Source: Candidatus Omnitrophota bacterium (GTDB lineage Bacteria > Omnitrophota > Gorgyraeia > JABMRN01 > RBG-13-46-9). Taken from it: a stretch of 53,636 nucleotides of DNA. The stretch is from assembly GCA_016782445.1 (NCBI GenBank), contig JADHYM010000003.1:1-53636 (forward strand). The letters run 5' to 3'. The notes under the pieces are model-generated. The model was given only the letters and a program-made list of their open reading frames with translations, was not told the DNA's origin and made no database searches. The stretch's first letter is position 1, and every line of letters starts with the position of its first letter. Below, one piece after another: positions 2,187 through 53,636 of the stretch. A program made the position numbers and the translations under genes.

Positions 2187-3347
2187 ATGAGAGCTTTTAA
2201 AGTAGTACTAAATAAAAAAGGAGTGGTTTTTGTAAGTGTTTTGGTAATATCAATGCTCATGGTGCTTATTGGCGTGAGCGCATCGAATATGCTGCTTCAG
2301 GACGTGCACATGATAAGGCGGCTTGAAAATAGCACAAAGGCCCAGTATGCTGCGGAGGCTGGCATAAGCGACGCACTCGCGACTCTGGTGCAGAACGGAT
2401 TTGTTGCCAAGGACACTATGTTTCCGCTAGCCGACACGATAGGTGAAGGAAGCTACACGGTTAGCGTTACGGAATCCGGAGAAAGGGTGCTTTTAACTTC
2501 TGTCGGGACAGTGAATAGCGCCTCAAAAACCGTAGCTGTTGAAGTTAAAGACGCAGTGCCCAACGCGCTTTATTATATGCTGTGCGGTGGTAATAACGTA
2601 AAATTTAGGGCGTTTTTTTTGGGCTTGGCTGATATAAACGGGGACATCCATGCGAATAACGATATAACTTTGAGAGCCCAGGCTATCGCCCTTATTGATA
2701 TAGGGCCTTGTCCGGCAGGCGACTGCGACGGGAACGTTTCCGCGGGAGATGATATTTCTAAATCAACAGGTTTTCTTGGGTTTATTAATATAGCGGGGAC
2801 TGAAACCGAAGACGCGGGCATGGTGTCTTTTCCGGAATTTGACTACGACTATTACAAAACACTTGCGCAAGACAGCAGTGATTATTACTCGAGTAACACC
2901 ACCATAGGATCAACCAGCACAACTACAAACTTAAGCCCTGGAAACGGAGTAGTATATGTGGACGGCATGCTTACTTTGCGCGGCACGATTAATCTTACGG
3001 GAGGCATTGTTGCTGAAAAGATAGAAGTGCGGGGCCAGCTCAACCAGACAAAAGACACCTCGCATAACACGAATGTCATAATCGCAAAAGGCGGCGGCTC
3101 GCCGGGAGACATAAAAATCTTCAACGAGTTAGCGACCGAAGAGGCTGTTGTTTACGCGACGCGCGATTTTGATGTTGTCGCGGCATTTTCAGTTGTTAAT
3201 GTTACAGGAGCTCTTATAGCCGGCCGCAATATCAGGGTATGGGATGCCGCGAGCTTCGTGACGTATAACCATTATATACTGACCCCCGGCGGTCTTTCAG
3301 GAGATGACAGCGATGATACCATAAGTATTGTCGCATGGACACGGTAG
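2187..3347 (+). CDS. PilX-like / minor-pilin-associated protein with N-terminal membrane anchor
   Basis: It starts 3 nt after the upstream stop. The N-terminus KGVVFVSVLVISMLMVLIGVSASNMLLQD...STKAQYAAEAGISDAL resembles the PilX N-terminal domain. The Gly/Asn/Thr-rich remainder suggests a beta-helix. Confidence 0.5.
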   Translation: MRAFKVVLNKKGVVFVSVLVISMLMVLIGVSASNMLLQDVHMIRRLENSTKAQYAAEAGISDALATLVQNGFVAKDTMFPLADTIGEGSYTVSVTESGERVLLTSVGTVNSASKTVAVEVKDAVPNALYYMLCGGNNVKFRAFFLGLADINGDIHANNDITLRAQAIALIDIGPCPAGDCDGNVSAGDDISKSTGFLGFINIAGTETEDAGMVSFPEFDYDYYKTLAQDSSDYYSSNTTIGSTSTTTNLSPGNGVVYVDGMLTLRGTINLTGGIVAEKIEVRGQLNQTKDTSHNTNVIIAKGGGSPGDIKIFNELATEEAVVYATRDFDVVAAFSVVNVTGALIAGRNIRVWDAASFVTYNHYILTPGGLSGDDSDDTISIVAWTR

Positions 3348-4086: not shown

Positions 4087-4090
4087 CTTT

Positions 4091-4213
4091 TCGTCAATCG
4101 GTTGCGGTTGCGTCGCGCGAAACGTTGGTCGTAGGCCGGTCGCGTACGTTTTTTTCACGCAACCCATCGACGCAATCATTTCCCACGACGCCACCGCCAC
4201 CGCCACCGCAACC
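4091..4213 (+). repeat. Dispersed intergenic repeat, copy A (long form)
   Basis: tcgtcaatcggttgcggttgcgtcgcgcgaaacgt... aligns along about 120 nt with copy E at 52440-52562. It contains GGTTGCG/CGCAACC units in both orientations and ends in (CCACCG)x3. Confidence 0.8.
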
Positions 4214-6909: not shown

Positions 6910-8172
6910 ATGTCATTAAATAGGGATTTGATAAAAATGGCCGAGTTCGCCAGAGACGCTTCGCAGCGCATGGTGTCGCTACGAAAGGAAACGAAAAACA
7001 AAGCTTTGCGGAAGATGGCGGCTGCCATTGTAGGAGCAAAATCGCTTATTATAAAGGCAAACCGAAAAGACATTAAAAATGCCGAAAGAAAAAAGCTTTC
7101 GCCCTCCATGGTCGAGAGGCTAATGCTTAATGAGAAGAGGGTGCATGAAATGTCCCGCTCAATAAGCAAGGTTTCGCTTCTTAAGGATCCGGTCGGTACG
7201 GTAGATGCGTTTATTAGAAGGCCGAACGGCCTCCTCATCGGAAAAATGAGGGTGCCCATAGGCGTCATGCTTGTAATCTATGAATCGCGGCCTAATGTCA
7301 CGGCTGATTGCGCGGCGCTTGCCTTAAAATCCGGAAACGCGCTCATATTGCGCGGCGGCAAAGAAGCCATAAACTCTAATATCGCGATTTTTAACGCGCT
7401 TGCCGGAGCGGCAGAAAAAGCAGGAATACCTAAGGGCGCGATAAATATGGTTAAGTCAGTGGACCGGCGAGCTGTTTCGACGCTTCTCGGGCTTAGTGGT
7501 CTTATCGACCTTGTTATACCGCGCGGCGGCGAGTCGCTTATACGTAAGATATCCTCTCATTCAAAAATACCGGTTATCAAACACTACAAGGGCGTTTGCC
7601 ATGTTTTTGTGGACGACGAGGCTGATCTTAACATGGCAGAAAAAATAGCTTATAACGCAAAGGTGCAAAGGCCGGGCGTGTGTAACGCGATGGAGACGCT
7701 TCTTGTTCACGAGGATATTGCCTGCAGATTCCTGCCTTCTCTGGCAAAAAGGCTGATAACGGCGGGCGTTGAATTAAGGGGTTGCCGGAAAACGAAAAGG
7801 ATTCTACGCAATTTCCGTGTCAAATCCGCGAAGGAAACCGATTGGAGCGAAGAATACCTCGAGCTCATTCTCTCTATAAAAGCGGTAAAAAACCTGGGCG
7901 AGGCTATCAGACATATAAATAGATACGGAACATCGCATTCCGACGCAATCGTAACTGAAAGCTGCGACCACGCGATGGAATTTCTGGAAAAAGTGGACTC
8001 TTCCGCCGTATACGTAAACGCCTCTACGAGGTTTACGGACGGGAACCAATTCGGTAAGGGCGCAGAGATGGGCATAAGCACTGATAAGTTGCACGCGCGC
8101 GGTCCGGTGGGTGTTGAGGATCTCACTACCTATAAATACGTTATCTTTGGCAACGGACAGGTAAGGAAATAA
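6910..8172 (+). CDS. proA: Gamma-glutamyl phosphate reductase
   Basis: ALDH-like protein with VCNAMETLLVH (catalytic Cys) and ASTRFTDG. It follows proB. Confidence 0.9.
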   Translation: MSLNRDLIKMAEFARDASQRMVSLRKETKNKALRKMAAAIVGAKSLIIKANRKDIKNAERKKLSPSMVERLMLNEKRVHEMSRSISKVSLLKDPVGTVDAFIRRPNGLLIGKMRVPIGVMLVIYESRPNVTADCAALALKSGNALILRGGKEAINSNIAIFNALAGAAEKAGIPKGAINMVKSVDRRAVSTLLGLSGLIDLVIPRGGESLIRKISSHSKIPVIKHYKGVCHVFVDDEADLNMAEKIAYNAKVQRPGVCNAMETLLVHEDIACRFLPSLAKRLITAGVELRGCRKTKRILRNFRVKSAKETDWSEEYLELILSIKAVKNLGEAIRHINRYGTSHSDAIVTESCDHAMEFLEKVDSSAVYVNASTRFTDGNQFGKGAEMGISTDKLHARGPVGVEDLTTYKYVIFGNGQVRK

Positions 8173-8183
8173 ATCAAACATAC

Positions 8184-8744
8184 ATGCGCATAGGTATATT
8201 AGGTGGTACGTTCAATCCCGTGCACAACGGGCATCTCTATATCGCGCAGGAAGCGCGTAAAAAACTTTCGCTTAATAAAGTAGTATTTGTCCCCGCGCAT
8301 ATTCCCCCTCACAAAAAAATAAAAGGTAATGCCACTGCAATCAACCGCGTGCGGATGCTCAAGCTTGCCTTGAAAAGGAGGAAGGGCTTTAGCTTTTCGC
8401 TATATGAGATAAGGAAAAAAGGCGTATCATATTCCGTCGATACTCTAAAATATTTTCGTAAAAAATACGGTAAACACACGAAGTTGTTTTTTATAATAGG
8501 TTCTGATTGGGCCGGCGGTTTAAAAGGATGGAAGAAAGCCCAAGAGCTTGCCCGGCTCGCAGTATTTGTTATTGCGCCCCGGCCAGGCTTTAAAAGGAAG
8601 AAGGTAGTAAAAACCTTACGGATTGCACGAAAGGATATTTCTTCGTCGGAAATCCGTAAACGCGTGAAAAACGGAAAAGCCGTAAAAAATCTTATTCCTA
8701 AGTCTGTTGCAAAATATATTTATAGGAAAAAAATATACCTATAA
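8184..8744 (+). CDS. nadD: Nicotinate-nucleotide adenylyltransferase
   Basis: GILGGTFNPVHNGH nucleotidyltransferase motif and C-terminal ISSSEIR. Confidence 0.85.
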   Translation: MRIGILGGTFNPVHNGHLYIAQEARKKLSLNKVVFVPAHIPPHKKIKGNATAINRVRMLKLALKRRKGFSFSLYEIRKKGVSYSVDTLKYFRKKYGKHTKLFFIIGSDWAGGLKGWKKAQELARLAVFVIAPRPGFKRKKVVKTLRIARKDISSSEIRKRVKNGKAVKNLIPKSVAKYIYRKKIYL

Positions 8745-8749
8745 TAAAT

Positions 8750-8793
8750 ACGCAACCGATCGGCGCAACTGGCTCGCGCGACGCAACCGCAAA
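8750..8793 (-). repeat. Dispersed intergenic repeat, copy B (short, inverted)
   Basis: The reverse complement, ...tttgcggttgcgtcgcgcgagccagttgcgccgatcggttgcgt, shares the gcggttgcgtcgcgcga core with copies A, D and E. Confidence 0.65.
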
Positions 8794-10863: not shown

Positions 10864-10927
10864 AACGCAACCGCCCGACGCCCGACGGTTCGCCTGACGC
10901 AACCGCAACCGCCCGACGCAACCGAAT
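10864..10927 (-). repeat. Dispersed intergenic repeat, copy C (inverted)
   Basis: The reverse complement, attcggttgcgtcgggcggttgcggttgcgtcaggcgaaccgtcgggcgtcgggcggttgcgtt, matches copy E (cattcggttgcggttgcgtcgtgcgaaacgtcgggcgtcg) with one duplicated unit. Confidence 0.75.
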
Positions 10928-10943
10928 AAAATTTAATAAAACT

Positions 10944-35250: not shown

Positions 35251-35326
35251 AACCCGGTTGCGGTTTACGCAACCCTCCTACGACCGACGTTTCGCGCGAC
35301 GCAATCGCAACTGATTGACGCAACCG
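35251..35326 (-). repeat. Dispersed intergenic repeat, copy D (inverted, medium length)
   Basis: The reverse complement, gcgtcaatcagttgcgattgcgtcgcgcgaaacgtcggtcgtagg..., matches copy A (tcgtcaatcggttgcggttgcgtcgcgcgaaacgttggtcgtagg) with 4 substitutions over about 45 nt. Confidence 0.8.
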
Positions 35327-45660: not shown

Positions 45661-46064
45661 TAGTCGGGACCGGCATAGACATAGTTGAAATATCGCGCTT
45701 TCGCCTCGCGAAGAAGAAGTGGGGCCGGAATTTTATCCAGAAGATCTTTACGGAAGGCGAAATAGAATATTCCAAAAAAAGGCGCTTTCAGGACCAGCAT
45801 TTCGCGGCGCGCTTCGCGGCGAAGGAAGCGGTTTTAAAGGCATTTGGCGACAAACTCTCCAGTATACGGAACTGGCAGGACATAGAGGTCTTGAACGACA
45901 AAAGCGGCAGGCCCTACATAAAATTTCATCGTAGCGCCAAAGAGCTGAAGGCCAAAGAAAAAATAAAAGATGTTGTGGTTAGCATGGCGCATTGCAGGGA
46001 GCACGCCGTCGCTAACGCTATCCTGATTTCAGAAGACAGAAAACAGAAGACAGAAGACAGATAG
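45657..46064 (+). CDS. acpS: Holo-[acyl-carrier-protein] synthase
   Basis: GTGIDIVEISRF and FAAKEAVLKA. Confidence 0.85.
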   Translation: MIVGTGIDIVEISRFRLAKKKWGRNFIQKIFTEGEIEYSKKRRFQDQHFAARFAAKEAVLKAFGDKLSSIRNWQDIEVLNDKSGRPYIKFHRSAKELKAKEKIKDVVVSMAHCREHAVANAILISEDRKQKTEDR

Positions 46065-46122
46065 TTTTTCTGTCTTCTGACCTCCGACTTCTGTTATCTG
46101 AACGGGACAAGGGGAGAATTAA

Positions 46123-47002: not shown

Positions 47003-47075
47003 GCCGAGGTAGCTCAGCTGGTAGAGCAGGGGTTTTGTAAACCTCAGGTCGCTGGTTCGATCCCAGTCCTCGGCT
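47003..47075 (+). tRNA. tRNA-Thr (UGU)
   Basis: gccgagg-ta-gctc..gagc-a-ggggt-TTTGTAA-acctc-aggtc-gctgg-ttcgatc-ccagt-cctcggc-t. No CCA is encoded. Confidence 0.9.
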
Positions 47076-47089
47076 CGTATTTGAAATTC

Positions 47090-47175
47090 GGGGAGATGGC
47101 AGAGTAGTCAAATGCACCAGACTGTAAATCTGGCGACTTCGGTCTACGAAGGTGCGAATCCTTCTCTCCCCACCA
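47090..47175 (+). tRNA. tRNA-Tyr (GUA), long variable arm
   Basis: ggggaga...cagaCTGTAAAtctg..., a long variable arm (gcgacttcggtctac), a T arm, then tctcccc-a-CCA. Confidence 0.9.
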
Positions 47176-47298
47176 TTCTACTTCGCCCCATTGCTTACGC
47201 GTGGGGCTTCGTAGGAATTACAACGTTAGCGAAGTAGAATGTTGTTCCTTCGAAGCCATGAGCGAAAGCATCATGGCGAAGAAGAACCATATTCAAAT
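47176..47298 (+). ncRNA. Candidate structured RNA tail of the tRNA-Thr/Tyr transcript
   Basis: Stem ttctacttcgc (47176-47186) pairs with gcgaagtagaa (47229-47239) and encloses the ccccA..Tgggg hairpin. A second ~15 bp interrupted hairpin spans 47244-47287. The terminator follows at 47299. Confidence 0.35.
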
Positions 47299-47328
47299 GG
47301 AAATGAATACAAATCATTTCCCTTTTTT
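47299..47328 (+). terminator. Rho-independent terminator of the tRNA-Thr/Tyr unit
   Basis: ggaaatga, 7 nt loop, tcatttcc, then c-TTTTTT. Confidence 0.7.
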
Positions 47329-47388
47329 ATATGGGTATCGCCTACGCGATGGGGAATGTTAGGAGATAAAAAAGTGACATTGATTTGA

Positions 47389-47417
47389 TTGACGGTTGAC
47401 AAGTTTTAGCGTATAAT
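47389..47417 (+). promoter_or_regulatory. Promoter of the 1605-aa ORF
   Basis: TTGACG (47389-47394), 17 nt spacer, TATAAT (47412-47417). The predicted leader is about 100 nt. Confidence 0.6.
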
Positions 47418-47525
47418 ATACTCAAGACGCGAGTAAACCTTCTGCTTCGTAATATAAGGAGAAAGCCGGAGGTATTTTTTTGAAACTTTTGTTAGTGCTT
47501 AAAAAAGTCAAAAAGGAGCTATTAG

Positions 47526-50500
47526 GTGACTAAAGACGCGAGATCTAACGGTGGTCTATCCAGAGCCACACACCCTTATAATACACTATTAAGCGTAGTA
47601 TTAAGAGGCTATTGTTGTAGGGCAGCCGCTTTAATAACAGCCATAGCCTTCTTTTGTACATCCATTCCGATTGAAAAATCATATGCGCAGGCACTCAAAC
47701 CTGCGATCCCGCAAAAAATATTAAATACCGAGACCTTCAGCTTGCCAACGCATCTTGGTCGCATCCTGGATTCATGGAGTCCAACTAGACAATCAACCAA
47801 TTCACAAATTAATCAAACGATAATACATGTCCAGGACGCGCATTGTAACTACGCTGCGCAGAAAAAAATTGCTGAAATAGTCAAATATCTGAATAACGAG
47901 TATAGCATAAATGCGGTAAATCTTGAAGGAGGCAAGGGCGATTACGATTTATCGATATTTACCCGTATTAAGGACCTCAGGACAAGGGAAAAGGTGACTG
48001 ATTATTTCGTTAAAGAAGGCCTTGTCAACGGCGCTGAATACTTTGCGTCTAACAATCCCGGGAAGGTCAGTCTATGGGGCGTAGAAGAAACAGGGCTATA
48101 TATCGAGAATCTGAACGCATACCGCGACGTACTTCAACATAAAGAGGAAATCGACAAACATCTCAAAATCCTAAATCACATCATAAGCAATTTCAAATTT
48201 CACATTTATCCTGAAGAACTATTGGAGGCCGATCGGAAATATGGCCGGTACAAAGCGGGTAATATTGATTTAAAGGAATACGTCGGTTTTCTTGTTATGG
48301 CGGCGGAAAAAAGAGCAATTGATATTACGGCATACCCTAATTTGTTTGTCTTACATGAGGCACTCCGGCAGGAGGGGGAGATAGATTTTAAGATTGCCGA
48401 CATAGAGCGCAGCCGACTCATTGACGTATTCCGGAAGACGCTTTCGAAGATAGAGCTTGAGAGGCTCGTAATAAAGACAGTTGAATTTAAATCAGATAAA
48501 ATCAAAGAACAGGAGTTTTACGCATATCTTGTAAACAAAGCGCGATTCCTGAATCTTGATCTTGCAGCTTTTTCCGCGCTTCAAAAATACGTCACTTATA
48601 TCGATGCCTATGCCTCTATCGATAAAACAAAAATACCCGCGGAGCTCGATTCGCTTGATAGAGATATAAAGGAAACGCTTTTTACCTCTGAAATCGAAAG
48701 GCGGCTCAATGCCCTTTCGAAGAACCTTGCTATCTTGCGGAACATGTTTAACGTTACTCTAATCCCCGATGACTATAAATATTATATTAAAAATAGAGAG
48801 TCTTTCAGTGTAAGCGAATACGTTTCGTTTATTGCGAAAAATGCACCGCTTTATAAGATACAGGCAAAACCCGATAAAAATATTTCAAATCTCAATTCCT
48901 ACCGTGAAAAAATGCAGCGTTTCTACGAATGTTCAAAAAAACGAGATGAGGTGTTTTTAAGAAACCTTAGATGGGGACAGGTCTCAGGGCAGGCTGGCGT
49001 AATACCTGGAAGAGACCTGTCCCCATCCGAACGCACCACCGCTCTCGTCACAGGAGGGTTTCACGCAGAAAATCTACACGAGCTTTTTAAAAAGAACAAC
49101 ATTTCGTATATCTCCATAATGCCGAATTTCAAGAACGAAGGGGGCTACGAATGCCCGTATTTTAAGATACTTTCAGGGAAAAAAAGCTTAGATATAGCCA
49201 ATGCCTTACCATCCGTTCTCGGCAACGCCCTTGCGATACCCGACCCGCTAAGTCCGGCGATGATGAAGGCTGTTCTCGACCATGCTGCACTCGCCAAGCG
49301 GCCTGATCCCCGCGTGTCTCTTGCGAACGGTGGGATGAGCCCGGAGGGGGTAGCGTATTTAGCGTTAAACGAAAGCGCTGAGGAACTGGTAGAGCATGTT
49401 ACGGCCGGGCATATATTACCGGAACAGGTAAACGTTGTGCGCGACGCGTTGCAAGCGAATCTTACAAAGCTCGAAAGATTCGATATACTGTTAAAATTGA
49501 ACAATAACGTCCGCGCCTTATATGAGCAGTTCTTTCAAGGAGGATCTAAAAGAAGCCCTGAATCCGCAATCGCCGAAGGATGCATGTCAGTGAATTCAGT
49601 TTTAGGTGTTTTGCTCAATGGGAGAGGCGGCTGGAAAGTTGATTTAATCTATAAAGAAATCGGAGATGACGAACACTGGTACCTTTTAGTTAATGAGAAA
49701 TTTATTGTTGATGCCTATCCATCATGGCTCCGACTAAGCCCGGATAGAGAAGTGCGCAAAATGGCCGAAGAGAAAAAAATTATTATTATGACTACAGAAC
49801 AGGCGGAAAGTAGCGGCAAGGCTGATATCGCGAAGTGGTATAGCGGGCCTTATTTAATTCCTTCAGAAAATTATATAGTTACAGCTGAAAATGCCGCAAA
49901 AAATATTCTAAGAGAATGTGGCTTGGAAACTATTTCTGTAACCGAATGGTTTGATGCGCAGCGGGAAGTGGCCGGAAGTTACATCGCCTCATTCGGCCTG
50001 GAAGAAATAGTTGGGCTGGACGAAAGCGAGATAGCAGGCCTTGCTCATGTTCCTGGCCTACAAACAGAAATCCGCCGCATAGTAAGCTCGTTTTCCAATC
50101 AATCCCCCGCTTGTGAATCGGTTGGCTTTGATGGCTCGGAGCGATGGCAGCAATTAAATCTAATGAAAAAGCAACTAGAGAGACTAATAGAAGTTAGAGA
50201 GCAAAGCGGTGAGAAGAGCATTCTAATATACGATATAGGCATCGGAAGAAAAGCAACTGAGACCGAAAAAATCATCAAGTGGCTGAACCGCGTATTGAGG
50301 GGTATGGCAGGTAAGGGTAAAATAACGCTGCGCGGGTGGAGAATTGATCTGATAGCGGTTGATACGAAAAAAGAGCTGGTAAGTGCCGCAGAAAACAACA
50401 TGAAAATAAGGCAATTGAGTGAAGCCTCCGCGGAATGGCTTAAGATTTATTTTGAACACGCAGATGCGCTGAACGCAACAAGGCTTACGCAAATATCGCG

Positions 50501-52343
50501 CGGTAAAGGCGATTTTATTTTCTATCGCCATACTGACTACTCAAACATGAGAGCACAGTCACTTATGCAGCGCTTGATCAAACTGCGCGAAGGCAATCTT
50601 CATGTATTGCGAAACCTTCTTAGGACTTATATAGCCAGGCGAAACATTTTTCGAGTTCTTAGCAAAGCGGGTAGCGTTTTTGTAATTGAACCAATATCCG
50701 GGCCGGCCACAGAAGGCGAAGACGTTGGGGAGGTTTCGGTTATACCCGGCACCAGACTCTTAACCGCTTCAGAATTGCTTTCTCGCGAACCTTCTTCCGC
50801 TATGAGTTTAGCGGACCGGGGCACTGGCATATACAGAATTAGTAATCCGCACGCAATATATGAGGCCGGATTGAACAATTTTTTAGAAAAGCAACCTTCG
50901 GTTGCTCTTGAAGCATTGCCCGAAGGCGTCTATAGTGTAGATAAATTTCCGCGACTTACCGAGAAGATAATAGAATCATTGGTAGGGATGTACCATCAAG
51001 GACTTCGTGGCCCAGATGCGCCTTTAGAGTCCGGACGCTTATCAGGTTATAGAGAGATGTTCAAAAACATGCTTCAAACTGAAAAGATAAATTTTGCGAT
51101 TAAAAATGGAGTAATGGTCGGCTTTGTACGTTTCTCGTTGAATAAGCCTGGTGGAGCTGCAAAAGTTGGTAACGCCTTAGTTGTTCAAGAAGAATGGCAC
51201 CATGGCATTGCCTCTCATCTTGTAGATAGCGCTATAGATGCAATCGTTAGAGGTAAAGATGGTCAAACGCTTGAATTTGAGGCCTTGCCGTGCATGATGT
51301 CATTTCATTTGGAACACTATTTACCAAGCCGCCGCAAAGAGAGCAGCAATAATCCAAACTCATGGTATCTTGAGTGGAGAACGCAGCCTGTTGAGGATAC
51401 CGTATGGGGAGATGCAGCAGTTGCAACTGACAGAGTTGCTCTTATACTAACAGCACATATGCGGCCTGTTGAAGGATTGAAAAGCGTGACAATGGATGGT
51501 AGAGCAAAAAAAGCTAATAAGATATCTGAGGCCAAAAAAATATATGACGCTGCAGAGGCGCTTGTTCCTGCGGTGGCAAAATTAATACGGCGCGATGTCC
51601 CGACATACGACATTGCGCCTATTCCCTACGAAGAGGCGAATGAGACTTTCTCTTACGCCAGAAAAATTGAACAATTGCTTCAAAAGGCAAACCACCAAAT
51701 ACACTTAAATCACTACAGAATCGGTAACAACGAGAACGGCTACGAAAATCTTATCCAGCAGGTTGATGGACAACTGGAGAATTTTATAAAAGACGTAGAG
51801 GAAAACCCCGGGGCACGAATGATAATACGAACTGTCGACGGCATAGCCGGCACGAGAAGTAGGATAATTTCTCACCTTATGAGCAATCAAGAGGGGGCTC
51901 GAGGCGTGCTAACTAAAATGGTTGCACGCGGAGAACTTACGCTTGAACAAAGAGACAAGATTATGTCAAGGATCAAAATAATTGAAATGGATATTGGCAG
52001 AGAGCCAAGGCACCTCAACACTGTTATCGATCTTTTTGTTGACCTCACGGCGATAGAAATTGACAGATATGTTTCAGGTTATTATCAGGTAGGGGATGCC
52101 GGAAAGGATAGGGAGAATCTTAAAAAACTAAAGAACGGTTTTTTGTCACTTTTAAAACTTTCAGTTGATAATTTTAGTGATCTAGAAGCTGCGGCTCTAA
52201 ACTTGGATAGCAACCGACAGGCTCTCGCAGAAAATGTTTTACACTTAATTTTTACAGACAAAAAGCTTATTATCCACGCAATTGACTGGGAGTCCTTAAG
52301 AGATCTTAAGAAACGAAGAGAGGAAATATTGTATTCGCTATAA
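47526..52343 (+). CDS. Orphan 1605-aa exported multidomain protein (Tiki/TraB-like, Cys-His-Asp papain/transglutaminase-like, class I SAM-MTase-like, GNAT-like, unknown C-terminus)
   Basis: The GTG start follows an in-frame TAG, with GGAG 7 nt upstream. The signal-like segment is AAALITAIAFFCTSIPIEKSYA-QA. Motifs read by eye:
- IIHVQDAH(101-106)...NLEGG(134)...VTGGFH(513)
- GC(686)MSVNSVLGVLL...EH(717)WYLLV...IVD(729)AYP
- ILIYDIGIGRKA...IDLIAVDTKKEL...YFEHADAL...GDFIFYRHT
- ALVVQEEWHHGIASHLVDSAIDAI. Confidence 0.75.
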   Translation: MTKDARSNGGLSRATHPYNTLLSVVLRGYCCRAAALITAIAFFCTSIPIEKSYAQALKPAIPQKILNTETFSLPTHLGRILDSWSPTRQSTNSQINQTIIHVQDAHCNYAAQKKIAEIVKYLNNEYSINAVNLEGGKGDYDLSIFTRIKDLRTREKVTDYFVKEGLVNGAEYFASNNPGKVSLWGVEETGLYIENLNAYRDVLQHKEEIDKHLKILNHIISNFKFHIYPEELLEADRKYGRYKAGNIDLKEYVGFLVMAAEKRAIDITAYPNLFVLHEALRQEGEIDFKIADIERSRLIDVFRKTLSKIELERLVIKTVEFKSDKIKEQEFYAYLVNKARFLNLDLAAFSALQKYVTYIDAYASIDKTKIPAELDSLDRDIKETLFTSEIERRLNALSKNLAILRNMFNVTLIPDDYKYYIKNRESFSVSEYVSFIAKNAPLYKIQAKPDKNISNLNSYREKMQRFYECSKKRDEVFLRNLRWGQVSGQAGVIPGRDLSPSERTTALVTGGFHAENLHELFKKNNISYISIMPNFKNEGGYECPYFKILSGKKSLDIANALPSVLGNALAIPDPLSPAMMKAVLDHAALAKRPDPRVSLANGGMSPEGVAYLALNESAEELVEHVTAGHILPEQVNVVRDALQANLTKLERFDILLKLNNNVRALYEQFFQGGSKRSPESAIAEGCMSVNSVLGVLLNGRGGWKVDLIYKEIGDDEHWYLLVNEKFIVDAYPSWLRLSPDREVRKMAEEKKIIIMTTEQAESSGKADIAKWYSGPYLIPSENYIVTAENAAKNILRECGLETISVTEWFDAQREVAGSYIASFGLEEIVGLDESEIAGLAHVPGLQTEIRRIVSSFSNQSPACESVGFDGSERWQQLNLMKKQLERLIEVREQSGEKSILIYDIGIGRKATETEKIIKWLNRVLRGMAGKGKITLRGWRIDLIAVDTKKELVSAAENNMKIRQLSEASAEWLKIYFEHADALNATRLTQISRGKGDFIFYRHTDYSNMRAQSLMQRLIKLREGNLHVLRNLLRTYIARRNIFRVLSKAGSVFVIEPISGPATEGEDVGEVSVIPGTRLLTASELLSREPSSAMSLADRGTGIYRISNPHAIYEAGLNNFLEKQPSVALEALPEGVYSVDKFPRLTEKIIESLVGMYHQGLRGPDAPLESGRLSGYREMFKNMLQTEKINFAIKNGVMVGFVRFSLNKPGGAAKVGNALVVQEEWHHGIASHLVDSAIDAIVRGKDGQTLEFEALPCMMSFHLEHYLPSRRKESSNNPNSWYLEWRTQPVEDTVWGDAAVATDRVALILTAHMRPVEGLKSVTMDGRAKKANKISEAKKIYDAAEALVPAVAKLIRRDVPTYDIAPIPYEEANETFSYARKIEQLLQKANHQIHLNHYRIGNNENGYENLIQQVDGQLENFIKDVEENPGARMIIRTVDGIAGTRSRIISHLMSNQEGARGVLTKMVARGELTLEQRDKIMSRIKIIEMDIGREPRHLNTVIDLFVDLTAIEIDRYVSGYYQVGDAGKDRENLKKLKNGFLSLLKLSVDNFSDLEAAALNLDSNRQALAENVLHLIFTDKKLIIHAIDWESLRDLKKRREEILYSL

Positions 52344-52349
52344 TATTGT

Positions 52350-52416
52350 GGCTGTCGGAACGCCCCGAGGGGCTACTCGCGTCGCCCCGGTTAAAGAGCC
52401 GACAGTCCTTTTTTTT
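52350..52416 (+). terminator. Rho-independent terminator of the 1605-aa ORF
   Basis: ggctgtcgg (52350-52358) pairs with ccgacag(t)cc (52399-52408). There is an inner GC-rich hairpin gccccgaggggc, followed by T8 (52409-52416). Confidence 0.7.
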
Positions 52417-52439
52417 GTTCATTTTTTCTAACCCGTTGG

Positions 52440-52562
52440 GCGTCATTCGGTTGCGGTTGCGTCGTGCGAAACGTCGGGCGTCGAACGTTTGCGTACATTC
52501 CTCACGCAACCGGTCGACTCAACCGTTTCCTGCGACGCCACCGACCGACGCTCCAGCAATCA
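52440..52562 (+). repeat. Dispersed intergenic repeat, copy E (long form)
   Basis: gcgtcattcggttgcggttgcgtcgtgcgaaacgtcgggcgtcgaacgtttgcgtacattcctcacgcaaccggtcgactcaaccgtttcctgcgacgccaccgaccg... is colinear with copy A. Confidence 0.8.
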
Positions 52563-52582
52563 CTGCTTGGCTTAGCTCATAC

Positions 52583-52611
52583 TTGACAAATGCCATACCC
52601 GATGGTATTAT
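52583..52611 (+). promoter_or_regulatory. Promoter of tRNA-Gly
   Basis: TTGACA (52583-52588), 17 nt spacer, TATTAT (52606-52611), about 20 nt upstream of the tRNA 5' end. Confidence 0.65.
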
Positions 52612-52631
52612 TACACAGCATAAAGGGCTTC

Positions 52632-52705
52632 GCGGGAGTAGTTCAATGGTAGAACGGCAGCCTTCCAAGCTGCTCACGGCGGTTCGATTCCGCTCTCCCG
52701 CTCCA
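52632..52705 (+). tRNA. tRNA-Gly (UCC)
   Basis: gcgggag-ta-gttc..gaac-g-gcagc-CTTCCAA-gctgc-tcac-ggcgg-ttcgatt-ccgct-ctcccgc-t-CCA. Confidence 0.9.
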
Positions 52706-52758
52706 TTTCTGCCCCTAAAAAGCCTTCAAAAATAAATCAAAAAAAGTTAAGAATACCC

Positions 52759-52786
52759 TTGACAAAAACCTCAAATATGGTATGAT
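52759..52786 (+). promoter_or_regulatory. Extended -10 promoter of the LAGLIDADG-like ORF
   Basis: TTGACA (52759-52764), 16 nt spacer ending in TGg, then TATGAT (52781-52786). Confidence 0.6.
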
Positions 52787-52839
52787 GTTGAACTTGTTTA
52801 CATCCGAAGGGTGAGTTTCGCCTACAGAAGAGGAAAAGC

Positions 52840-53511
52840 ATGCAACTCGCTGAAATCATAAGAAGTTACAAACGCGGAAATTCGGTAAACGAAGTGGCAA
52901 CACTTTTTCGTCTTTCGCCGAACAGGGTACGCGACGTGCTTAGTAATTATGATATAATAATGAGAAGTCACAGAGAGGCCGCATATCTTAAAAATAACAA
53001 AAACGGCGACCCGTTCGACATACTTACAGAGTTAACGCCGGAAGAAGAGCATTTGAAGGCGATGGCCCTCGGCCTTTATCTCACTGAAGGAAATCTGAAA
53101 AACAAAAATTCCGTGCGGTTCTCCAATTCAAACCCGGCCCTCGTCAAGATTTTCGTTAAATTCCTGAAAGTTATATGCGGCGTTGCAAGCGAAAAAATAA
53201 AACTCTCTCTCATAATTTATCCGGATGTTTCCGCAAAAGTGTCAAAAGAATACTGGGCGAAATTTCTGGACCTTCCGGTAAAACAGTTTACAAAAACAAC
53301 AGTTCTTAAAAACAGAAAAAGCTCTCACGCAAAAAGGCATCACTCTGAGCTTGGAACGATCACGATATATGTTCATAATACGAAGCTTTTAGGCATTATA
53401 AAAGAATGGGCAAAAGAATACGCCCATGTAGCTCAGCTGGTAGAGCACATCCATGGTAAGGATGGGGTCGCCGGTTCGATTCCGGCCGTGGGCTCTCTTA
53501 AAAGGAGGTAA
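52840..53511 (+). CDS. HTH + single-motif LAGLIDADG-like homing endonuclease family protein; 3' end overlaps tRNA-Thr(GGU)
   Basis: N-terminal HTH-like NSVNEVATLFRLSPNRVRDVL. The LAGLIDADG-like motif is AMALGLYLTEGN, followed by SVRFSNSNPALVKIFVKFLKVI, typical of free-standing members. The last ~30 codons (AHVAQLVEHIHGKDGVAGSIPAVGS) are the tRNA gene read as protein. Confidence 0.6.
   Translation: MQLAEIIRSYKRGNSVNEVATLFRLSPNRVRDVLSNYDIIMRSHREAAYLKNNKNGDPFDILTELTPEEEHLKAMALGLYLTEGNLKNKNSVRFSNSNPALVKIFVKFLKVICGVASEKIKLSLIIYPDVSAKVSKEYWAKFLDLPVKQFTKTTVLKNRKSSHAKRHHSELGTITIYVHNTKLLGIIKEWAKEYAHVAQLVEHIHGKDGVAGSIPAVGSLKRR
53422..53494 (+). tRNA. tRNA-Thr (GGU)
   Basis: gcccatg-ta-gctc..gagc-a-catcc-ATGGTAA-ggatg-gggtc-gccgg-ttcgatt-ccggc-cgtgggc-t. 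No CCA is encoded. Confidence 0.9.
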
Positions 53512-53514
53512 AAT

Positions 53515-53636
53515 ATGGCAAAAGCAAAATTTGAACGCACCAAACCCCACATAAACGTGGGCACGATCGGTCACATCGACCACGGAAAGACGTGTCTGAC
53601 AAGCGCCATAACAAAGACGCTTGCTGTTAAGGGTCA
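53515..53636 (+). CDS. tuf: Elongation factor Tu, 3' end cut by window edge
   Basis: AAGGAGG upstream of the start, and [26 protein letters not shown]. Confidence 0.95.

Follow-up and report, generated by a model that had tools for sequence, protein, structure and literature searches.

An ancient reading frame fused to tRNA-Thr(GGU) and a lineage-specific giant gene within the thrU-tufB-type tRNA cluster of an Omnitrophota genome

We are concerned here with a cluster of tRNA genes and tuf, the gene for elongation factor Tu (EF-Tu), in a stretch of 53,636 nucleotides (nt) from a Candidatus Omnitrophota genome (contig JADHYM010000003.1); we refer to the whole of this stretch as the window. Toward its end, four tRNA genes and the start of tuf follow one another in the order tRNA-Thr(UGU), tRNA-Tyr(GUA), tRNA-Gly(UCC), tRNA-Thr(GGU), tuf, which is identical to the E. 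coli K-12 order thrU(UGU)-tyrU(GUA)-glyT(UCC)-thrT(GGU)-tufB. A preliminary description of the window had recognized this correspondence, and ARAGORN, Rfam and the translation of tuf bear it out. Two protein-coding open reading frames (ORFs) stand among the tRNA genes: one of 1605 amino acids (aa), the giant gene, in the 5456-nt gap between tRNA-Tyr and tRNA-Gly, and a much shorter one, the small ORF, in the 716-nt gap between tRNA-Gly and tRNA-Thr(GGU). The preliminary description had given these gaps as 5.46 and 0.72 kb, in agreement with our measurements. We think it probable that an ancestral thrU-tyrU-glyT-thrT-tuf cluster has been interrupted twice, by a lineage-specific giant-gene cassette and by an ancient, tRNA-fused relative of homing endonuclease genes that is possibly domesticated.

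The genes immediately upstream of the array are pdxJ, acpS and nnrD (NAD(P)HX dehydratase), as identified by Pfam, and this flank is kept in related genomes together with tRNA-Thr(UGU), which follows nnrD at a distance of 22 nt in the window and likewise in the relatives. Since the pdxJ-acpS-nnrD-tRNA-Thr(UGU) flank is conserved, the array can be compared with those of its relatives site by site. At the other end, tuf starts 20 nt past the end of tRNA-Thr(GGU), and a full-length EF-Tu is found at the equivalent place in relatives (398 aa in locus L002; a Pfam GTP_EFTU match in L107). The homologues of both ORFs derive almost only from metagenome-assembled genomes (MAGs) of Candidatus Omnitrophota.

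Conservation and relatives of the small ORF

The small ORF, whose conserved core spans 52840-53421, has 85 homologues at 58-77% identity. In all 18 of the related Omnitrophota loci (L001-L014 and L107-L110), which were retrieved via homology to the small ORF itself, a homologue lies directly 5' of tRNA-Thr(GGU) and tuf. From one pair of loci to another, the identity of the small ORF rises and falls with the identities of nnrD (r = 0.87) and pdxJ (r = 0.89), its mean identity is 72% versus 67% for nnrD and 64% for pdxJ, and its ratio of nonsynonymous to synonymous substitution rates (dN/dS) is 0.06-0.16. These sequence comparisons show the small ORF to be an old, clade-wide and vertically inherited gene under strong purifying selection, and not a recent insertion. 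The preliminary description had named, as what would point away from insertion, a case in which relatives share the arrangement and carry homologues of the ORFs; for the small ORF this is the case, since none of the 18 loci lacks a homologue in that position. Because the small ORF is absent from E. coli and from more distant Omnitrophota such as L022, where an unrelated 248-aa ORF occupies the space between tRNA-Gly and tRNA-Thr(GGU)-tuf, we read it as having been gained once, at the base of the clade.

The small ORF belongs to a large family. A profile search finds more than 1000 family proteins of about 220-230 aa, annotated at most as helix-turn-helix (HTH) regulators or as 'transposase-like'. 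In the sampled loci the family is linked to tRNA genes: this holds for Omnitrophota, for Actinobacteria, for a MAG of Saccharibacteria and another labelled Pseudomonadales, and for contigs of jumbo phages (Table 1). One phage contig (L112) packs 23 tRNAs into 5.2 kb, and in another (L111) the stop codon of the ORF lies 1 nt before tRNA-Cys. Both in Actinobacteria and in Omnitrophota it is tRNA-Gly(UCC) that precedes the family ORF, and three of the actinobacterial loci (L103-L105) share the conserved order CtaG - tRNA-Gly - ORF. A few keyword searches of the literature returned no description of an HTH plus LAGLIDADG-like family in tRNA arrays.

A second member of the family, a paralogue about 31% identical to the small ORF, lies directly 5' of tRNA-Tyr in some of the relatives, with its stop codon abutting or overlapping the 5' end of the tRNA. 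Its presence is patchy (L003, L004, L008 and L109; 4 of 13 loci). In these four loci, tRNA-Tyr(GUA) carries a group I intron (RF00028, 83-101 bits) in its anticodon loop, and ARAGORN misses the intron-bearing genes. That is, the paralogue occurs in 4/4 loci with the intron versus 0/9 loci in which tRNA-Tyr is intronless, among them the window; no match to Rfam Intron_gpI was found in the window. In L109 the paralogue (2525-3109) contains an in-frame stop and is a pseudogene, and the intron beside it is intact. The L109 and L003 introns are 86% identical, even though they reside in distant hosts (whose nnrD genes are 60% identical). Another locus, L007, contains at 7181-7405 a 74-aa ORF of the GIY-YIG type (Pfam E = 1.6e-6) in the spacer between tRNA-Thr(UGU) and tRNA-Tyr, which adds a second homing-endonuclease-like class to the tRNA array.

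Taken together, the tRNA-array loci of the family, the coupling of paralogue and intron, and the GIY-YIG ORF lead us to infer that the family may have begun as free-standing homing endonuclease genes that targeted tRNA genes and inserted at the 5' edge of the tRNA. In this clade the copy at thrT would then have become fixed and been kept, either domesticated or still active, and would have escaped the alternation of invasion and decay that is usual for such genes. The small ORF may have an endonuclease ancestry or activity.

How far does the protein itself resemble a homing endonuclease? Pfam recognizes only the N-terminal HTH of the family and has no model for the C-terminal domain. This domain contains a motif of the LAGLIDADG type, in which an acidic residue is followed by Gly (LGLYLTEG in the window, LYWAEG in the family consensus), and across the family the Gly is invariant and the Glu is present in at least 90% of sequences. 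The window motif LGLYLTEG...SVRFSNSNPALVKIFVKFLKVICGV aligns by hhalign with the region of the second LAGLIDADG motif of I-DmoI, over 41 columns (E = 5e-4, probability 32%, 39% identity); the sequence of I-DmoI for this comparison had been entered by hand. Matches to Pfam LAGLIDADG_3 fall below threshold and occur in 6 of 28 members (best E 0.017); for the window protein, no LAGLIDADG profile match was found in Pfam, and profile searches with the family gave none in NCBIfam or among PDB sequences, the HTH being the one part recognized. Two AlphaFold2 models have mean confidence (pLDDT) values of 86-88. A Foldseek search of viral models (BFVD) with the predicted structure returns a homing endonuclease and several proteins that bear inteins or plausibly do so, with a root-mean-square deviation (rmsd) of 3.9-4.5 A, template-modelling (TM) scores of 0.41-0.44 and weak E-values. 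The top Foldseek matches in the PDB (OmpA-like proteins, YfiB and IspF; TM 0.3-0.42, rmsd about 7 A) were set aside as reflecting a non-specific alpha/beta sandwich.

Several of these results count against an endonuclease relationship. The LAGLIDADG assignment is weak, in that no Pfam match reaches threshold and the I-DmoI sequence was entered by hand. One Omnitrophota subclade has His or Asn where the catalytic Glu would be, in an otherwise conserved protein. The Foldseek search of the PDB has no LAGLIDADG protein among its top 50 matches, all with TM of at most 0.42, and the predicted topology is alpha-beta-alpha-beta-alpha-beta-beta-alpha, as against the canonical alpha-beta-beta-alpha-beta-beta-alpha. 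We regard a LAGLIDADG-like C-terminal domain as plausible, rather than established, from the sequence and the models. The label 'LAGLIDADG-like', which the preliminary description had already attached to the ORF, thus keeps the support of the motif, the I-DmoI alignment and the weak LAGLIDADG_3 matches, and lacks that of a profile at threshold or of a fold match in the PDB.

The same observations bear on the strongest alternative, namely that the small ORF is an ordinary host HTH regulator of stable-RNA or tuf expression and was never a homing endonuclease. We consider this unlikely. Vertical inheritance, strong purifying selection and an N-terminal HTH all suit a regulator, as do the loss of the Glu in one subclade, the result of the PDB search and the conserved synteny in Actinobacteria, and an invariant leader motif 5' of the ORF, described below, could serve as an operator. 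A host regulator fits poorly, however, with a family that is found beside differing tRNAs (Thr, Tyr, Met, Cys, Gly and His) in unrelated phyla and in jumbo-phage arrays, or with a paralogue of scattered occurrence that goes together with a group I intron and has decayed in one locus. Furthermore, the exact abutment or overlap with the 5' end of a tRNA resembles the signature of an insertion site, and the paralogues, judged by eye at one locus (L003), lack the leader motif.

Coding sequence within tRNA-Thr(GGU)

No stop codon closes the small ORF ahead of tRNA-Thr(GGU). The frame crosses the whole of the tRNA and ends at a TAA (53509-53511) inside the Shine-Dalgarno region of tuf, a read-through that the preliminary description had overlooked. 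Codon 194 (Tyr) abuts the first base of the tRNA with zero spacing, in the window and in 11 relatives, so that codons 195-203 coincide with tRNA bases 1-27 (53422-53448) and encode the tail AHVAQLVEH. The C-terminal peptide predicted from read-through is ...KEYAHVAQLVEH. In all, 53 protein clusters take a tail of AHVAQLVEH, ALVAQLVEH or AHIAQLVEH from the tRNA.

A sister clade allows us to ask what this tail is worth as a peptide. There, 22 protein clusters have a 9-residue tail of their own, [ST]Y[VI][AS]Q[IL]VE[RH], after which the frame stops. In the five loci of this kind that we examined (L012 and L107-L110), an intact tRNA follows 2-6 nt on in four of them, and 113 nt on in L109. The tail codons of these five loci differ by 42 synonymous versus 16 non-synonymous changes, and eight of nine third positions vary versus one of nine second positions. 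Because the variation is concentrated at third positions, the separate tail is a translated, selected peptide and not a decaying fragment of tRNA. On comparison of the sequences, the tail can only have derived from the tRNA, and the sister clade appears to have resolved the conflict between ORF and tRNA by duplicating the 5' part of the tRNA. Since the separately encoded tail is under selection in the sister clade, bases 1-27 of the tRNA in the window are read as functional codons; that is, the comparison shows that the first 27 nt of tRNA-Thr(GGU) encode a functional C-terminus of the small-ORF protein.

It might instead be supposed that the overlap has no function, that the protein effectively ends at Tyr194, and that the read-through is an accident. 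The position of the stop codon past the tRNA does vary among loci, a sequence constrained as a tRNA could leave a frame open fortuitously, and RNase P would in any case remove the tail codons. We nonetheless find this quite unlikely in view of the sister-clade tails just described, which are encoded separately and yet keep the same end, followed by a stop, under a predominance of synonymous change.

The region 5' of the small ORF is conserved as well. Over about 110 nt it contains A-tracts, TTGACA, an extended -10 element and a leader motif. Across 13 aligned loci, and in L107-L110 too, the -35 hexamer does not vary, and both the extended -10 and the A-tracts are kept. The promoter-like site itself (52759-52786) matches 11/12 consensus positions. 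The leader motif lies 10-15 nt 5' of the start codon, and the constraint on it acts at the level of nucleotides. Consensus folding found no conserved RNA structure in the leader, and the idea of a riboswitch or attenuator was dropped for this reason; a pairing of leader CCUACAG with tRNA positions 6-10, judged by eye, was rejected as amounting to 5 bp only. Since its strong-looking promoter is conserved, the small ORF probably heads a transcription unit ORF-tRNA-Thr(GGU)-tuf, which would run from the UP-like element and promoter (52727-52786) through the leader and the small ORF into the tRNA and tuf.

On such a transcript, a cut by RNase P at 53421/53422 would remove both the tail codons and the stop codon. 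As the stop codon is located past the RNase P site, only unprocessed precursor RNA should yield the protein in full length, and synthesis of this protein would exclude the maturation of tRNA-Thr from the same transcript. A transcript cut by RNase P would yield the tRNA and a stop-less mRNA, targeted by transfer-messenger RNA (tmRNA). Co-transcription would thus place translation and RNase P in competition. A more far-reaching proposal, which we offer tentatively and as a possibility only, is that the small ORF heads the tRNA-Thr(GGU)-tuf transcript, that the acceptor stem and D-arm of the tRNA encode its C-terminus, that the passage of the ribosome against cleavage by RNase P acts as a switch or a dosage limiter for a domesticated homing endonuclease that targets tRNA genes, and that the ORF is the founding member of a family of more than 1000 proteins specialized for the tRNA arrays of bacteria and jumbo phages.

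The location of these genes in cis on a tRNA precursor also invites the suggestion that the family consists of RNA maturases or chaperones, which bind tRNA precursors or the group I introns of tRNAs. LAGLIDADG maturases assist intron processing in organelles; the co-occurrence of paralogue and intron is perfect (4/4 versus 0/9), and a maturase could remain conserved without the catalytic Glu. Yet the tRNA-Thr(GGU) that follows the main ORF is intronless in every locus, the L109 intron persists beside a pseudogene, and the HTH suggests binding to DNA. We attach a low probability to this suggestion, and prefer an origin from free-standing endonuclease genes.

The spacer between tRNA-Tyr and tRNA-Gly

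We turn to the first interruption. The preliminary description had placed in this interval a structured tail, a terminator, the 1605-aa gene and a copy, E, of a repeat, and each of these was located in the window. The giant protein is modular: its first 588 residues form a conserved, Omnitrophota-specific module, and the ~1000 residues from there to the C-terminus are unique to it. Its 143 homologues match the N-terminal ~35% only and have variable C-termini; the module is common to more than 140 Omnitrophota proteins of 900-2800 aa, and the closest relative (P0002; 66% identity) is confined to residues 1-588. The region encoding the module (47526-49289, ~590 residues) includes the motifs HVQDAHCNYAAQ and VTGGFHAENL, and in homologues the domains that follow it are swapped (methyltransferase, kinase, phosphatase, TPR and others). 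Against Pfam the giant protein gives a GNAT match only, below threshold, and a sequence search of the PDB finds no relative.

By tblastn, no homologue of the giant protein is present in any syntenic locus (L001-L100 and L107-L110), and the homologues of the giant gene elsewhere are unlinked to the tRNA array; the idea that this gene family is a tRNA-targeting element was rejected, as the contexts of its homologues are not tied to the array. In the relatives, the space between tRNA-Tyr and tRNA-Gly is either short, as in six loci, or filled with other genes, and the neighbouring space between tRNA-Gly and the small ORF contains cargo of several kinds (Table 1). Since relatives have short spacers or other cargo, the tRNA array behaves as an insertion hot spot, and would be a general landing place for cargo in the clade, with genes that differ from relative to relative in the same or the neighbouring spacer. 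One such gene encodes a protein of at least 3890 aa (L107, 1-5570) with kinase and poly(A)-polymerase-like domains and ends 430 nt 5' of the small ORF; the available part is not homologous to the giant protein of the window. These comparisons support the view that the giant gene is an insertion, or at least a lineage-specific gain, in the Tyr-Gly spacer. The cassette would measure about 5.3 kb and comprise its own promoter, a modular, membrane-anchored protein of 1605 aa, a hairpin terminator and a repeat resembling repetitive extragenic palindromes (REP-like). We note that a metagenome scan anchored on nnrD returned mostly distant taxa, with nnrD-tRNA synteny kept in only ~9 of 80 loci, and gave no unbiased sample of the close clade.

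The preliminary description held that two insertions split the cluster, and suggested looking in relatives for a contiguous Thr-Tyr-Gly-Thr-tuf array. The first half of this picture stands: the giant gene is specific to its lineage at this site and absent from the syntenic loci, and the six short spacers show tRNA-Tyr and tRNA-Gly close together. The second half does not, for the small ORF lies between tRNA-Gly and tRNA-Thr(GGU) in 18/18 loci and diverges together with the host genes. Thus, the view that both ORFs are recent insertions into a contiguous operon is very improbable, notwithstanding their low G+C content at third codon positions (GC3 of 0.421 for the giant gene, 2.5 standard deviations under the mean, and 0.448 for the small ORF, versus 0.520 +/- 0.040 for window genes), the promoter-like site before each and the contiguity of the E. 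coli cluster: the position, co-divergence, dN/dS and clade-wide promoter of the small ORF refute it for that ORF by synteny, and for the giant gene it is the view that we favour.

As for transcription, the whole region contains 16 promoter-like sites versus 10.8 expected by chance, so that consensus matches alone are weak evidence. With this in mind, four units are predicted, the last being the one headed by the small ORF. In the first, transcription from the vicinity of nnrD would pass through tRNA-Thr(UGU) and tRNA-Tyr and stop at the hairpins at 47.18-47.33 kb; the second would run from the promoter at 47389 through the giant gene to the terminator at 52.35-52.42 kb; and the third would run from the promoter at 52583 into tRNA-Gly, after which there is no terminator and read-through is likely. 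The fold of 47173-47335 has an energy of -67.1 kcal/mol (z = -8.0). That of 52344-52420 (-28.4 kcal/mol, z = -2.0) is statistically weak, and the call of a terminator there rests on a T8 run past the stem.

The preliminary description had proposed that new promoters rewired the operon into at least three units. The tRNA-Gly site fits this proposal. Promoter-like sites precede tRNA-Gly in three of six loci in which it is separated from tRNA-Tyr (the window, L004 and L022), and none was found there in five loci with a short spacer; since such sites occur only where cargo parts tRNA-Gly from tRNA-Tyr, a rewiring is plausible, in which a separate promoter would drive the orphaned tRNA-Gly. The promoter of the small ORF, on the other hand, is not new, being conserved in all relatives.

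The stem CTACTTCGC / GCGAAGTAG of the structured region after tRNA-Tyr is also seen, by eye, after tRNA-Tyr of the distant relative L036. Because the same stem is present there, the hairpin is probably older than the insertion of the giant gene. We considered whether this hairpin or repeat copy E might mark the borders of a mobile element, and rejected the idea, as no inverted or direct repeat joins the flanks; moreover, L036, which shares the stem (again by eye), has no insertion, which speaks against the hairpin as a border. The window contains neither an integrase or recombinase nor a direct repeat of a tRNA 3' end, which together would mark a genomic island at a tRNA gene. The preliminary description had likewise seen no integrase, transposase or duplicated tRNA 3' end. 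Pfam detects no integrase or transposase domain in the two ORFs, which are the only plausible genes within 47176-53421, and no partial tRNA copy was found in the whole window at up to 4 mismatches per 20-22 nt.

We record a few further observations. Partial copies of the 3' half of tRNA-Gly lie 3' of the intact gene in two relatives (L004 9778-9809, 25/31 nt; L008 3690-3711, 16/21 nt), which hints at scars of past integrative elements in the array. A promoter-like TTGACA site follows the REP-like repeat both at ~4240 and at 52583. An ORF at 8184-8744 is a further low-GC outlier besides the two spacer ORFs (GC 0.412). Between acpS and nnrD, at 46025-46102, there is an imperfect inverted repeat of CAGAAGA-type units with 34-nt arms that are 79% complementary. 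Finally, the + strand of the window carries every one of its 39 non-overlapping ORFs that reach 150 aa, and the cumulative GC skew climbs throughout.

Table 1. Features of the window and, by locus, of related or family arrays. Promoters and terminators are predictions; 11/12 denotes consensus positions matched.
Feature	Sequence	Position or size	Strand	Basis or remark
tRNA-Thr(UGU), thrU equivalent	window	47003-47076	+	ARAGORN; Rfam 66.7 bits
tRNA-Tyr(GUA), tyrU equivalent	window	47090-47175	+	ARAGORN, Rfam; without intron
Structured RNA after tRNA-Tyr	window	47176-47330	+	long hairpin, then terminator-like hairpin with T-run
Terminator-like hairpin	window	47299-47321	+	terminator scan
Sigma-70-like promoter of giant gene, TTGACG-17-TATAAT	window	47389-47417	+	11/12; predicted
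1605-aa ORF (giant gene)	window	47526-52343	+	N-terminal membrane anchor or signal sequence
Hairpin then T-run	window	52350-52416	+	probable giant-gene terminator
REP-like repeat copy E	window	52440-52543	+	GGTTGCG/CGCAACC-rich; dispersed, intergenic
Other REP-like repeat copies	window	4089-4196, 8748-8789, 10865-10941(-), 35266-35325(-)		both orientations
Sigma-70-like promoter of tRNA-Gly, TTGACA-17-TATTAT with TG	window	52583-52611	+	11/12; predicted
tRNA-Gly(UCC), glyT equivalent	window	52632-52705	+	ARAGORN, Rfam
A-tract (UP-like) element and promoter TTGACA-16-TATGAT with TG	window	52727-52786	+	predicted; small ORF/tRNA-Thr(GGU)/tuf unit
Leader motif TCGCCTACAGAAG (core YCCTACAGA)	window	52818-52830	+	invariant in 17/17 loci; single occurrence in window
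Small ORF, 223 aa as read	window	52840-53511	+	N-terminal HTH and C-terminal LAGLIDADG-like 'LYLTEG' domain
tRNA-Thr(GGU), thrT equivalent	window	53422-53495	+	ARAGORN, Rfam
tuf (EF-Tu) start	window	53516-53636	+	translation; cut by window end
Group I intron in tRNA-Tyr(GUA)	L003	4652-4879		
Group I intron in tRNA-Tyr(GUA)	L004	8658-8885		
Group I intron in tRNA-Tyr(GUA)	L008	3115-3354		
Group I intron in tRNA-Tyr(GUA)	L109	3140-3359		
Tyr-Gly spacer	L002	135 nt		
Tyr-Gly spacer	L005	143 nt		
Tyr-Gly spacer	L009	103 nt		
Tyr-Gly spacer	L013	5 nt		
Tyr-Gly spacer	L037	2 nt		
Tyr-Gly spacer	L044	12 nt		
Tyr-Gly spacer	L007	2.2 kb		other ORFs
Tyr-Gly spacer	L004	760 nt		
Tyr-Gly spacer	L022			flavodoxin-like and YjbQ-like ORFs (by eye, no Pfam scan)
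Cargo between tRNA-Gly and small ORF	L002			HAMP-GGDEF protein and 856-aa protein
Cargo between tRNA-Gly and small ORF	L005			1227-aa subtilase and others
Cargo between tRNA-Gly and small ORF	L108, L110			amino-acid permease
Cargo between tRNA-Gly and small ORF	L107			gene of at least 3890 aa
Family ORF, Actinobacteria	L015, L016, L018, L020, L103-L105			7/7 loci; starts 30-50 nt past tRNA-Gly(UCC)
Family ORF, Saccharibacteria MAG	L017			ends 10 nt inside tRNA-Met
Family ORF, MAG labelled Pseudomonadales	L019			ends 13 nt before tRNA-Met
Family ORF, IMG/VR contigs (jumbo phages)	L111-L115	contigs of 21-499 kb		5/5 inside or beside tRNA arrays; motif AGCMLYWAEG

Assessment and comparison with known systems

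Beyond the doubts about the protein domain, further points weigh against the account of two interruptions, one lineage-specific and one derived from a homing element. The copy at thrT lacks the patchy presence and the empty sites that go with homing: it is vertically inherited, is present in 18/18 loci and behaves like a host gene rather than a selfish one, and none of the loci found in the clade has an empty site. Since the small ORF itself served to retrieve the close-clade loci, they are no independent test of its fixation. A tblastn search with the small ORF gave no match among deposited phage genomes and plasmids. For the giant gene, the available relatives are only 60-77% identical, so that the date and the boundaries of the insertion cannot be fixed, and no integrase, transposase or direct repeats hint at its mechanism. 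The promoters and terminators, finally, are consensus predictions only. With these points counted, we still hold the interruption of an ancestral cluster by a lineage-specific cassette and by an ancient, tRNA-fused ORF to be the best explanation.

The thrU-tufB array is among the most conserved of bacterial gene orders, and its split alone would be a variation on a known theme; in Omnitrophota the array has gained cargo, two classes of homing-endonuclease-like genes and a group I intron in tRNA-Tyr. Of greater interest is the tRNA-fused ORF of an undescribed family. It exposes a large group of HTH plus LAGLIDADG-like proteins for whose C-terminal domain Pfam has no model and of which the PDB holds no relative. 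These proteins, whose sampled members come from jumbo phages as well as at least three phyla of bacteria and sit at tRNA arrays, are candidate tRNA-gene-specific homing endonucleases and could supply new sequence-specific DNA binders. Same-strand overlaps between coding sequences and tRNAs are usually dismissed as annotation artefacts; the comparison with the sister clade makes an unusually clean case for a selected peptide encoded by 27 nt within a tRNA gene. Such dual coding predicts that translation and RNase P processing compete for one precursor RNA, that of the highly expressed tuf operon.

Several known systems may be compared with the array. The closest in gene content is the E. coli thrU-tyrU-glyT-thrT-tufB operon, which has the same four tRNA species, anticodons and order, with tuf directly after them. 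In E. coli, however, the four tRNAs lie within 442 nt and form one operon with tufB, whereas in the window they are spread over 6.5 kb, a distance that also takes in two genes for proteins, a pair of terminator-like hairpins and, inside the array, three promoter-like sites. With ORFs and these predicted signals in its gaps, the window does not have the compact single operon of the thrU-tufB cluster.

Phage T4 SegB is a free-standing GIY-YIG homing endonuclease encoded inside the T4 tRNA gene cluster (PMC2330249). Like segB, the small ORF is a nuclease-like gene between tRNA genes, it has relatives in phage arrays, and a GIY-YIG ORF is found in the array of L007; by position, the window and all loci examined from Omnitrophota, Actinobacteria, Saccharibacteria and jumbo phages resemble the T4 case, with an ORF between same-strand tRNA genes and a family that recurs in arrays. 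The small ORF differs from SegB in that it is known from sequence alone, combines an HTH with a LAGLIDADG-like domain and no GIY-YIG, is chromosomal, fixed and vertically inherited, and has a coding sequence that overlaps the tRNA.

In collaborative homing, as at psbA of cyanophages, a free-standing endonuclease gene lies beside a group I intron that has no endonuclease of its own. The paralogue is similarly placed directly 5' of an intron-bearing tRNA-Tyr, the ~220-nt intron has no ORF, and the two always occur together. This likeness applies to the paralogue of the relatives, whereas the tRNA of the window ORF has no intron.

With LAGLIDADG enzymes, both of the single-motif I-CreI type and I-DmoI, the small ORF shares a helix that closes with LYxxEG, the Glu of which is nearly invariant, and then a strand and helix that fit the pattern xVRFxNSxPxLVxxFxxFLxxxxGV, and its paralogue is associated with a group I intron. 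The model of the small ORF differs in an extra helix between the strands and in its N-terminal HTH, and the gene of the paralogue is not contained in the intron but precedes the 5' exon. A domesticated LAGLIDADG protein is already known in WhiA, which has an HTH, is conserved in its hosts and does not universally keep its catalytic residues. The small ORF likewise joins a LAGLIDADG-like domain to an HTH and is kept as a host gene, but with the domains in reverse order, one LAGLIDADG-like domain and not two, and a context tied to tRNAs; searches of Pfam and NCBIfam profiles detected no sequence similarity between WhiA and the small-ORF family.

Finally, the abutment of the small ORF on a same-strand tRNA recalls the tRNA punctuation of animal mitochondria, in which excision of tRNAs by RNase P sets the 3' ends of mRNAs, overlaps are 0-3 nt and polyadenylation completes the stop codon. 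In the small ORF, by contrast, at least 27 nt of the tRNA serve as functional codons, and cleavage would leave an mRNA with no stop codon.

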